From IMG/VR virus record IMGVR_UViG_2660238398_000003: a DNA stretch of 7,908 bases; one strand, written 5' to 3'. Of this stretch, positions 4,231-5,972 are shown in pieces. Position 1 is the first letter of the stretch, and each line of letters starts with the position of its first letter. The notes beneath the pieces were generated by a model that did no database searches, was not told where the DNA came from, and worked only from the letters and a program-made list of their open reading frames with translations. The translations under genes and the position numbers were made by a program. The DNA comes from a virus (lineage: Duplodnaviria; Heunggongvirae; Uroviricota; Caudoviricetes).

Positions 4231-4615
4231 AAACGTCCCCGTTTAGCGCAGAAGTCACAGGAGTTGTTCAGGCTCCGGTGATACAATTATGGCGAATTGA
4301 TTATTCATAATCAAACAAGATAAGGTCTCAAACTTCATGCAAGCCAAGATTTATTTCTGACAGAATTATACAAAGAAGCTATTGGTCAGAATCTACTCGG
4401 ACTGTAAAACATACGCATAACCTTAAGCTCTCACTTTAAGCATTGTTGAAATAATAGCCGTCAAGTACAACCTTAACCACGACTGGGATATTTCCCTAGC
4501 TACCACGAGTTGTACTGCTATTAAACTGCCGTTAAATTCAGTAAGAGAATTTCATCCGATAAGTCAAGGCATGTAAAACATAAAAATTAACAAGATATTA
4601 TCATCTGCAACACTA

Positions 4616-5623
4616 TTGTATGGTATGTCAATGGCCATGTCGGTCGGGAGTTGTGCAACACCTGTCCAGACTAATTTTCCTGGTTACACCCCGGGTGCAG
4701 ATATCATTAGTGTTTCACCCACCAGAAACCAGGTCGATCTCATTGGTGATGTTGTTTATTCCCAGATAAAAGGAACTCGTTCTGTCAGACAGCTTCACAT
4801 GTCAGTTCTTGTCCCGCGAACAAATGATTTAAAACCAGCCATTATTTATTATCCCGGCGGCGGATTCATGTCTTCTGAACATGACAAATTTATTGAAATG
4901 AGAATGGCTCTGGCTGAAGCTGGTTTTGTTGTGGCCGCTGTAGAATACAGAACAATTCCTGATACATTTCCAGCACCAGTTGAGGATGGGAAAGCTGCAA
5001 TACGTTACTTGAGAGAACATGCCAGCGATTATGGGATTGATCCTCAAAGAATCGGAGTTCTGGGTGACTCTGCCGGTGGATGGCTTGCCCAGATGATGGG
5101 AACTACAAATGGTGACAAAACCTTTAATAAAGGTGACTTTCTTCAGCAATCAGCAGATGTTCAGGCAGTTGCCACACTTTATGGGATTTCTGACTTGTTG
5201 AATATTGGCGAGGGGTTCCCTGAATCAGTGCAGGAGGTTCATCGATCTCCTGCCGTAACCGAAGCCTTAATGATCAATGGCCCTGCATTCAGAAGTTTTG
5301 CGGGAGCCCCCATAACAGCGTCAAAAGAAAAAGCGCTAAACGCCAGTCCAATCGGACATATGAAAGGAGTAAAACCCCCATTTCTTATTATGCATGGTAG
5401 CAAAGACACTCTGGTTTCACCTGAGCAAAGCGCCAAACTATTCAGGATGTTGAAGAAGAACGGCGATAACGCTGAGTACGTTCTGGTAGAAGGGGCTGAG
5501 CATGGCGATAATACATGGTATCAGCCAATTATTATAAACAGAGTTGTTGAGTGGTTTACTAAAAACCTGGGAACCCCCATAAAAACCGCTACCCAACAAC
5601 AAAAAACAAACGCTGACCTGTAA
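4616..5623 (+). CDS. Alpha/beta-hydrolase-fold esterase/lipase (family IV / HSL-like motifs), probable cargo gene; start codon uncertain
   Basis: 335-aa ORF with an oxyanion-hole motif YYPGGGF, the nucleophile-elbow motif GDSAGG, and candidate Asp (HGSKD) and His (AEHGD) in canonical order. The ORF-track start is a TTG with no RBS. An in-frame ATG at 4571 is followed immediately by TAA at 4574-4576 (see findings). Confidence 0.8.
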   Translation: MYGMSMAMSVGSCATPVQTNFPGYTPGADIISVSPTRNQVDLIGDVVYSQIKGTRSVRQLHMSVLVPRTNDLKPAIIYYPGGGFMSSEHDKFIEMRMALAEAGFVVAAVEYRTIPDTFPAPVEDGKAAIRYLREHASDYGIDPQRIGVLGDSAGGWLAQMMGTTNGDKTFNKGDFLQQSADVQAVATLYGISDLLNIGEGFPESVQEVHRSPAVTEALMINGPAFRSFAGAPITASKEKALNASPIGHMKGVKPPFLIMHGSKDTLVSPEQSAKLFRMLKKNGDNAEYVLVEGAEHGDNTWYQPIIINRVVEWFTKNLGTPIKTATQQQKTNADL

Positions 5624-5626
5624 AAA

Positions 5627-5650
5627 GCAGCCCGCACTTATGCGGGCTAA
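5627..5650. terminator. Hairpin agcccgca-ctta-tgcgggct, probably a bidirectional terminator
   Basis: It begins 5 nt after the hydrolase stop. The minus-strand side has a strong T-run (gctttttac) and the plus-strand side a weak one (aacctatttc). Confidence 0.45.
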
Positions 5651-5667
5651 CCTATTTCACTCGATTC

Positions 5668-5690
5668 AAAAGAAATTATTTTTAATGGGG
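5668..5690. repeat. Copy A of a 23-bp imperfect direct repeat (aaaa-g-aaattatttttaatg-g-gg) flanking the serine recombinase gene
   Basis: 15-bp exact core aaattatttttaatg at 5673-5687; 21 of 23 positions match copy B at 7741-7763. Confidence 0.6.
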
Positions 5691-5972
5691 GCGTGACCAG
5701 CCTCTCGGTGCTCAGATACTTAATGAAGTGGAGTGGCATTCAGGCAAGAGGTTAACATCACCTGTTCGCCATAACCAAGCACGTGCACAAAGTTTGTTAT
5801 CAGTGAATTGTTTTGTGATTGGGTATTGTTGAGCTACTAGAGCAAGAATGCCAACATCCAGTGGCAGTGCCTATAGTAAAACTATAGCTCAGGGCGCTTC
5901 GTTCAAGATAGTTAATATCATATTAGTCACTTTACTTTCATACCATAGCACGGTTGAAAAAGTGATTATTAC

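Follow-up and report, generated by a model that had tools for sequence, protein, structure and literature searches.

A moron-like esterase gene of the BD-FAE family in a DLP12-like prophage, with an ATA codon in place of its native ATG start

The stretch of DNA analysed here (the window) is 7,908 nucleotides long and comes from IMG/VR record IMGVR_UViG_2660238398_000003, a virus of the Caudoviricetes. The subject is an esterase gene that lies between ylcH and ybcK, at positions 4231 to 5972. The open reading frame (ORF) list, Pfam matches and the annotation of Escherichia coli UPEC132 identify the window as part of a DLP12-like lambdoid prophage. Positions 2811-7908 are 100% identical to UPEC132, in which the matching segment belongs to a complete lambdoid prophage that adjoins icd and also carries iss. 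The ORF listing leaves one real gene in the ylcH-ybcK interval, on the plus strand, and an Rfam scan of the whole window including both spacers (E up to 1) found no RNA family. An earlier interpretation made from the letters alone (the sequence-only reading) had described an alpha/beta-hydrolase cargo gene at the place of K-12 ybcL and ybcM, opposite in orientation to the phage genes, and this is borne out by the ORF list, Pfam and synteny. The features of the window are collected in Table 1.

The gene is part of an exchanged cassette. The order in K-12 MG1655 (NC_000913) is ybcK-ybcL-ybcM-ylcH-ybcN on one strand throughout, and the DLP12 order given in the sequence-only reading is right. Alignment with blastn places the breakpoints relative to K-12 at 4315/4316 and 5963/5964; the replaced segment of the window (4316-5963) is 1648 bp and its K-12 counterpart, with ybcL and ybcM, is 1845 bp. 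The left junction is identical in K-12 and TB06053, and the similarity to sequence type 131 (ST131) runs past it. The esterase gene is absent from the reference DLP12 and is not a housekeeping esterase. The transferable esterase module spans 4316-5627, its end being set at 5627 because the ST131 similarity stops there and the right side of the slot is a patchwork. Among 5426 complete E. coli genomes, 3206 carry the ybcLM cassette and 606 the esterase cassette at 80% or more query coverage. The esterase gene, counted by its 5' region, occurs in 681, about one genome in eight (~12%), including LF82 and ST131. The window-type right spacer is present in full in 184 genomes only.

The slot, a mosaic hot spot, occurs in at least four arrangements, as expected of the variable prophage slot that had been proposed. 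These are the ybcLM type, the esterase type, the TB06053 type (L095 3014-4065), which has a 66-aa 'P22AR C-terminal domain' ORF and two hypothetical ORFs on the phage strand, and a type with the esterase plus an inverse-autotransporter gene, found in the sampled ST131 strain 4224 (L004). Similarity between that strain and the window spans 2726-5627 and ends four bases past the esterase stop. In strain 4224 a convergent 4.3-kb inverse-autotransporter (intimin/invasin-like) gene (L004 4605-7105 and beyond) begins 36 bp after the esterase, in place of ybcK. The same gene order with the esterase is found in the isolated phages 4A7 (Bievrevirus), Lambda_4C10, D2, 1W, 3W, Perceval and PhiR47_2, where the gene is annotated as 'esterase', 'alpha/beta hydrolase' or 'hypothetical protein'. 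Prophages of K-12, TB06053, ST131 and the esterase type share their flanks and differ only in the slot. A search for direct or inverted repeats of the insertion sequence or transposon kind flanking the cassette found only short, chance-level repeats. At the nucleotide level, the upstream 264 bp do not resemble the loci that carry the closest homologues outside E. coli. The segment behaves as a moron module of a lambdoid phage and occupies the slot that separates ybcK from ylcH in the nin region.

Like the lambdoid morons bor and iss and DLP12 ybcL-ybcM, the esterase is an accessory gene between conserved phage genes that is present or absent in otherwise syntenic phages. Further features in common with this group are the opposite strand, a 3' hairpin and a (here predicted) envelope product. 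The gene differs from this group in that no recognisable promoter was found for it and in that it codes for an enzyme, neither an adhesin nor a serum-resistance factor. The products of ybcL-ybcM, a periplasmic protein of the PEBP family (YbcL) and a regulator of the AraC type (YbcM), bear no relation to the esterase.

The sequence-only reading had modelled the cargo as a single 335-aa gene. One gene is indeed present in the slot, but the native product is 347 aa long and begins with ATG. The frame is open back to 4577, with a stop codon at 4574-4576, and translation of its upstream part reads N-I-K-I-N-K-I-L-S-S-A-T-L-L-Y-G-M…. The native start lies 36 nt upstream of TTG 4616, where an ATG gives a predicted 347-aa prelipoprotein (MKINKILSSATLLYGMSMAMSVGSC followed by A). 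In the window the codon at this position, 4580-4582, is ATA. The DNA alignment has ATG in LF82, ST131 and E1, as does phage 4A7, and ATA in the window and UPEC132. An exact ATG-bearing 60-mer occurs in 677 of 682 E. coli records, and its exact ATA version in four complete genomes only (UPEC132, YP3, GN02350 and N50). PGAP calls a 347-aa coding sequence (CDS) in LF82, ST131 and E1, and one of 330 aa, from ATG 4631, in UPEC132. The corresponding protein cluster in the database has 1454 members, begins MKINKILSSATLLYGMSMAMSVGS… and is 347 aa long. The 335-aa ORF is not the native product; it is what a mutation of the start codon has left of the full frame.

The window allele differs from that of strain E1 by M1I and L33F only, and the start-codon mutation thus appears, from this comparison, to be recent. 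The ratio of nonsynonymous to synonymous polymorphism (pN/pS) between diverged E. coli alleles is 0.11-0.22, indicating purifying selection in the phage population at large. Pairing with the anti-Shine-Dalgarno (anti-SD) sequence is weak before the native start (AAGG at 4566-4569, -3.2 kcal/mol); there is no complementarity before 4616 or 4625, and the duplex before 4631 is worth -2.8 kcal/mol. Initiation at AUA reached ~1-2% of the AUG level on an E. coli plasmid reporter, with a range of 0.02-3% (10.1101/063800). Because the start is ATA and the downstream starts lack an SD sequence or a functional signal peptide, the window copy is most likely a near-null, recently inactivated allele. A separate observation concerns protein P0121 of the E. 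coli cluster (251 aa, 36 contigs), which is called from Met97 (MSSEHDK…) on a window-like allele background. It implies a second apparently inactivated variant, with an upstream frameshift or stop in another lineage.

The export signal belongs to the 347-aa form. A PROSITE PS51257-type rule was applied, which asks for a lipobox ([LVI..][ASTG..][GAS]-C) within residues 15-35, after a positive n-region and a hydrophobic h-region. The ATG-type sequence MKINK-ILSSATLLYGMSMAMSVGS-C25 satisfies it, with V-G-S-C25, Lys2 and Lys5 and a hydrophobic core; the products of TTG 4616 and ATG 4631 do not. An export signal is found in nearly all homologues, in the form of SAGC or STGC lipoboxes in the closest relatives and of A-x-A signal peptides in more distant ones. 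The native product is therefore a predicted outer-membrane lipoprotein, both its lipidation and its location being read from these residues.

Profile searches matched both Abhydrolase_3 and BD-FAE. The best Pfam family is BD-FAE (PF20434), with 151.6 bits against a cut-off of 26.8 (E 2.9e-44, profile positions 7-214 of 215). Abhydrolase_3 is second at 81.7 bits (E 8e-23), above its cut-off, and PHROG 3341 'esterase' matches with E 3e-129. With residues numbered on the 347-aa protein, the motifs YPGGGF (90-96) and GDSAGG (162-167) are present, and Ser164, Asp276, His308 and the oxyanion glycines G93-G95 are invariant in 49 homologues. The triad aligns with the corresponding motifs of structure 6nkf and of BD-FAE, whose active site is Ser128/Asp237/His269 with oxyanion Gly53 (PMC8165983). 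An AlphaFold2 model (mean per-residue confidence, pLDDT, 82; predicted template-modelling score, pTM, 0.84) is closest to 6nkf (32% identity, Foldseek E 1.6e-25), followed by BD-FAE (6xyc/6tkx), Thermogutta Est2 and the esterase domain of Bacteroides eggerthii GH43-CE (6mly); a profile search agrees.

The sequence-only reading had noted HGGG-like and GDSAGG motifs and placed the protein in the family IV/hormone-sensitive lipase (HSL) esterases. The motifs are there, but the placement is not upheld. Classical HSL esterases rank below BD-FAE-type structures in Foldseek, and the NCBIfam HSL subfamily models all score below their cut-offs (GTSAG 55.1/380, GESAG 47.7/430, GCSAG 32.4/410 and LipP1 78.9/350 bits). 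Judged by sequence, the protein is a member of Pfam BD-FAE, and the HSL label holds only at superfamily or clan level, since the loop has an invariant Pro where family IV has the His of HGGG. No NCBIfam equivalog came near its cut-off. Chloramphenicol hydrolase, N-acyl-homoserine lactone (AHL) lactonase, tannase, polyhydroxyalkanoate (PHA) depolymerase and PETase/MHETase were rejected, with NCBIfam or Pfam scores far under cut-offs or partial domains only. A separate feature is the disordered C-terminal tail (5603-5620; columns 370-381 of the 14-homologue alignment), which ends …(P/N)-(D/N)-A-x-L-COOH. All 14 aligned homologues, drawn from several families, have Ala345 and Leu347, and the consensus of 49 sequences ends …ANL. 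This conserved A-x-L end might be a sorting, secretion or protease-recognition signal.

Table 1. Features of the window, in window coordinates. A1, alignment across E. coli copies; A2 and A3, conservation alignments of 14 and 49 homologues; L001, UPEC132; L002, K-12; L004, ST131; L095, TB06053.
Feature	Position	Strand	Basis or remark
essD	19-234	-	
nmpC/ompC-type porin	from 895	+	
quuD, then ylcG			gene order
rusA	2865-3227	-	
ybcO, then ninE			gene order; between rusA and ybcN
ybcN	3677-4132	-	
ylcH, small phage-strand ORF, left slot border	4129-4230	-	mapped from UPEC132 annotation (L001 14997-15098); K-12 ylcH at same position
Shared stretch upstream of ylcH, common to all slot variants	4231-4315		blastn against L002, L095, L004
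5' non-coding part of esterase module	4316-4579	+	264 bp, 37-40% GC; travels with the gene, including in ST131
Full esterase frame, 347 codons + stop	4580-5623	+	first codon ATA here, ATG in nearly all copies; translation, A1, PGAP
Predicted signal peptide with lipobox (…MSVGS-C25, Ala at +2)	4580-4654	+	truncated in the 335-aa ORF
ORF as first listed, 335 aa, TTG start	4616-5623	+	
Oxyanion-hole motif P92-G-G-G-F96	4853-4867	+	Pro for His of HGGG; invariant in A2, A3
Nucleophile elbow G-D-S164-A-G-G	5063-5080	+	Ser codon 5069-5071; invariant in A2, A3; aligns with GDSSGG / GFSSGG of 6nkf and BD-FAE
Catalytic Asp276 in HGSKD	5405-5407	+	HGSxD in homologues; invariant in A2, A3; aligns with HGDxD of 6nkf and BD-FAE
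Catalytic His308 in AEHGD	5501-5503	+	AxHGD in homologues; invariant in A2, A3; aligns with GxGH of 6nkf and BD-FAE
GC-rich hairpin, 8-bp stem, 4-nt loop	5629-5648		5 nt past the esterase stop
emrE-like patch, 38 nt, mosaic joint	5653-5690		3' end of emrE and just downstream; blastn to L095 5962-5998, 87%; 100% over 38 nt under emrE annotation
ybcK-proximal spacer with relic of 5' end of P22AR-C ORF	5718-5963	-	91% to L095 3959-4209, overlapping CDS 3865-4065 (-)
ybcK, large serine recombinase, 508 aa, right slot border	5973-7499	-	Pfam Resolvase, Recombinase, Zn_ribbon_recom; ybcK in UPEC132 and K-12 annotation

Non-coding spacers flank the gene, as had been described; the upstream one measures 349 bp, not the 385 bp first given. 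The hairpin past the stop codon, which had been taken for a terminator, is present, with a folding energy (dG) of -14.8 kcal/mol on the plus strand and a z-score of -3.0. The ST131 arrangement departs from the window at 5627/5628, just 5' of it. The T-run of the hairpin is on the minus strand (CTTTTT), the plus-strand side then having only CUAUUUC. The hairpin may be at least as good a terminator for the phage strand as for the esterase gene, and it may chiefly stop read-through from ybcK into the esterase antisense strand.

Homologues that share 57-79% identity occur widely in gut bacteria and in bacteria associated with plants, among them Dickeya, Pectobacterium, Pantoea, Klebsiella, Kluyvera, Rhizobium/Agrobacterium, Sphingomonas, Vibrio, Bacteroides/Prevotella and others. 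Identity to D. aquatica SLM61953.1 (P0080) is 65% over 94% of the length, and to the neighbouring D. aquatica paralogue SLM61950.1 it is 46%; both bear the UniProt name 'Ferulate esterase'. Dickeya FaeD and FaeT are listed as feruloyl esterases of carbohydrate esterase family 10 (CE10) (PMC10319131), and FaeD is secreted by the type II secretion system (PMC9007343). BD-FAE itself acts more readily on feruloyl than on acetyl esters (PMC8165983).

All ORFs within 5 kb of the gene were clustered across 87 homologous loci. Among true neighbours, the most frequent is a phenolic-acid decarboxylase of 168 aa (Pfam PA_decarbox, E 1e-85); its gene immediately precedes the esterase gene, on the same strand, in 13 loci (L010-L012, L017, L018, L024, L038, L041, L045, L046, L053, L065 and L068) from Serratia, Mangrovibacter, Symbiopectobacterium, Azospirillum, Acinetobacter, Aeromonas, Pedobacter and metagenomes. 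The gap to the esterase, from its called or predicted start, is 2-88 nt in 12 of the 13; the esterase copy of L065 is truncated and its gap is not meaningful. A divergent LysR gene is present in ten of these loci, and P0005 (74% identity), among the closest non-E. coli relatives, sits in such a decarboxylase operon. The arrangement of a divergent LysR gene, a phenolic-acid decarboxylase and an exported BD-FAE-type esterase is conserved across Gamma- and Alphaproteobacteria and Pedobacter. We know of no description of it as a hydroxycinnamate-ester utilisation or detoxification operon.

Because of the homology to the Dickeya 'Ferulate esterases' and the recurrent decarboxylase neighbour, the substrate, which the sequence-only reading had left open, is narrowed to what are most likely hydroxycinnamoyl (feruloyl or chlorogenate-type) esters. 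An exported esterase that frees ferulic or p-coumaric acid and a cytoplasmic decarboxylase that detoxifies the acid would make a coherent pathway. Apart from this, MK524177.1 ('Escherichia phage PHB10', L007 1-5915) has a 73%-identical esterase homologue beside bacterial-looking genes for a LysR regulator, an amidohydrolase, a gluconolactonase and an aromatic alcohol reductase. That region may be host chromosome, or a segment that was transduced or misassembled.

Known relatives were compared with the E. coli protein. The Dickeya FaeD/FaeT type shares with it a BD-FAE match above that of Abhydrolase_3, the invariant triad, the PGGGF loop, an N-terminal export signal and the C-terminal …A-x-L. 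The E. coli protein differs in being phage-borne and in having the lipobox VGSC, not a signal-peptidase-I site. LysR genes flank both Dickeya paralogues, whereas the prophage slot has no regulator. A ferulate-responsive regulator, faeR, is said to have been placed next to the Dickeya fae genes by Hassan and Hugouvieux-Cotte-Pattat in 2011. BD-FAE (6TKX/6XYC) shares the Pfam family PF20434 and the fold (Foldseek E ~1e-18 to 1e-19, template-modelling score 0.70-0.79), but it is a bifunctional feruloyl/acetyl xylan esterase of beaver-dropping and moose-rumen origin from a Bacteroidetes xylan polysaccharide utilisation locus, not a prophage. Lip_vut4 (6NKF), a goat-rumen metagenome 'lipase', is the closest structure and aligns almost end to end (profile E 1e-48). 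It lacks the lipoprotein signal and the phage context, and we found no published substrate data for it. The family IV/HSL esterases Aes, EST2 and EstE1 share the clan, a GDSAG-type elbow, a Gly-rich oxyanion loop and the Abhydrolase_3 match, but score lower than BD-FAE and have the HGGG His where Pro is invariant here.

It is probable, if only somewhat, that the gene encodes a moron-borne lipoprotein esterase of the BD-FAE/FaeD-FaeT lineage, active on hydroxycinnamoyl esters, and that the ATA codon has inactivated it in the window. Lying on the strand opposite to the early rightward phage operon, the gene could be transcribed independently by the lysogen. The 347-aa prelipoprotein would be exported through Sec and lipidated at Cys25, and Ala at +2 would lead to Lol sorting to the outer membrane. 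It would act there as a serine esterase with the Ser164-Asp276-His308 triad and the PGGGF oxyanion loop, hydrolysing feruloyl or p-coumaroyl oligosaccharides, chlorogenate-type esters and possibly acetyl esters in the envelope. Its role would be that of a diet- or plant-related fitness gene, not a toxin or defence gene. In the window copy, the ATA start would limit the exported form to ~1-2% or less of the AUG level, and the chain would be broken at its first step.

Several points weigh against this proposal. A scan for consensus sigma-70 promoters found none on the plus strand upstream of the gene (4 sites in the whole scan, against 4.3 expected in shuffled sequence), and expression in the lysogen is presumed. 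A search of the literature found no assay data for this exact clade. Linkage to the decarboxylase is confined to the 13 loci, the Pantoea and Klebsiella/Phytobacter loci having uninformative neighbours, and the prophage slot has neither decarboxylase nor LysR neighbour, nor a decarboxylase relic detectable by tblastn with phenolic-acid decarboxylase. BD-FAE, the family founder, is only ~25% identical. Its Glu197 is the proposed ferulate-binding residue (PMC8165983); the alignment to 6tkx breaks at ~186-214, leaving the Glu197 region unaligned, and residues 208-219 of the model have pLDDT <50. The closest solved structure is labelled a lipase. Finally, AUA permits some initiation, and the window allele is possibly leaky, not null.

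The enzyme could instead be a lipase or a short-chain esterase of broad specificity (carboxyl or acetyl), hydroxycinnamates having no special place among its substrates; it might, for example, deacetylate xylan or pectin oligosaccharides or other acetylated or acylated compounds in the periplasm. This is possible but doubtful. It accords with the deposition of 6nkf as a lipase, with the deacetylation of xylan by BD-FAE and its relatives (PMC8165983) and with the absence of a decarboxylase neighbour from 74 of the 87 loci. Weak NCBIfam matches to acetyl esterase, pectin acetylesterase PaeX and AxeA1 point the same way, but they lie far under their cut-offs (PaeX 47.7 versus 550), and the closest named relatives are 'ferulate esterases'. 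The recurrence of the decarboxylase-esterase operon in distant phyla is also hard to fit to a generic esterase. A different question is whether the window copy still functions, either as a 330-335-aa cytoplasmic esterase translated from TTG 4616 or ATG 4631 or through sufficient initiation at AUA. UPEC132 has a RefSeq annotation for an 'alpha/beta hydrolase' of 330 aa, the catalytic domain of the window copy is undamaged, with L33F as the sole change relative to E1, and the published range of AUA initiation extends to 3% of the AUG level (10.1101/063800). However, the downstream starts have at best the -2.8 kcal/mol duplex before 4631 and none before 4616 or 4625, the truncated leader fails the lipobox rule, all relatives are exported proteins, and the ATA allele, found in 4 of 681 genomes, seems to have arisen recently by mutation, not to have been maintained. 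A functional window copy is thus unlikely.

It is far less credible that the enzyme serves lysogenic conversion or superinfection exclusion, stripping O-acetyl or acyl groups from O-antigen, capsule, enterobacterial common antigen (ECA) or peptidoglycan in the envelope and so altering phage receptors or immune recognition. By analogy with the outer-membrane lipoprotein morons Bor and Iss, an envelope-targeted predicted lipoprotein on a temperate-phage moron could have such a role. The gene is also enriched in the listed extraintestinal pathogenic (ExPEC) and adherent-invasive (AIEC) E. coli genomes (LF82, NRG857C, SE15, ST131 and UPEC132), and parts of the uropathogenic E. coli (UPEC) literature link YbcL, the other cargo of the slot, to neutrophil responses. 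The protein has no homology to known O-acetyl esterases (SGNH or CE families), however, and its close homologues are encoded on the chromosomes of gut and plant-associated bacteria, in surroundings that are catabolic and do not concern surface polysaccharides.

Outside the slot, the window departs from UPEC132 by five perfect short tandem duplications (31, 22, 32, 19 and 19 bp), a 40-bp insertion at 483-522 that Tandem Repeats Finder (TRF) does not call a tandem repeat, one single-nucleotide polymorphism and a 1-bp insertion. The differences lie at 383-444, 483-522, 1751-1795, 1854-1922, 2281-2323, 2388-2430 and 2808-2810. They frameshift the nmpC/ompC-type porin, cut quuD to a 97-aa ORF and hit ylcG. 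None of the 5426 genomes has these changes, the best identity being 97.5-98.2%. An assembly artefact would account for them, or else the region of the late-gene regulator has decayed in an unusual way.

Annotations of the gene already exist in hundreds of genomes and several phage records. A literature search by RefSeq protein accessions found no functional study, and the titles and abstracts of the papers that a search on Bievrevirus/4A7 phages brought up do not mention the esterase. For annotation, the message is that the 330-335-aa ORF produced by gene callers should not be taken as the native protein. Some E. coli isolates from the human colon are reported to have cinnamoyl/chlorogenate esterase activity, which varies between strains (Couteau et al. 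2001, as cited in PMC4352739). We tentatively suggest, while regarding it as improbable at present, that the phage-borne esterase is a determinant of this activity and that lambdoid phages spread an auxiliary metabolic gene for dietary phenolics. If so, the gene would influence how much ferulic or caffeic acid is freed from fibre and from the polyphenols of coffee, might bear on fitness in the gut, and would be spreading between lineages of the gut and extra-intestinal ones, for instance ST131 and LF82. It would be a candidate gene for the old observation that some colonic E. coli hydrolyse chlorogenate.

If the predicted activity is real, ~12% of sequenced E. coli, including the pandemic ST131 and the Crohn's-associated LF82, would possess a phage-delivered envelope feruloyl/hydroxycinnamoyl esterase, an enzyme class usually tied to plant-cell-wall degraders and fibre-degrading gut Bacteroidota. 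It would then be a clear case of a temperate coliphage whose cargo is a metabolic gene connected with diet, not a toxin or a defence system.

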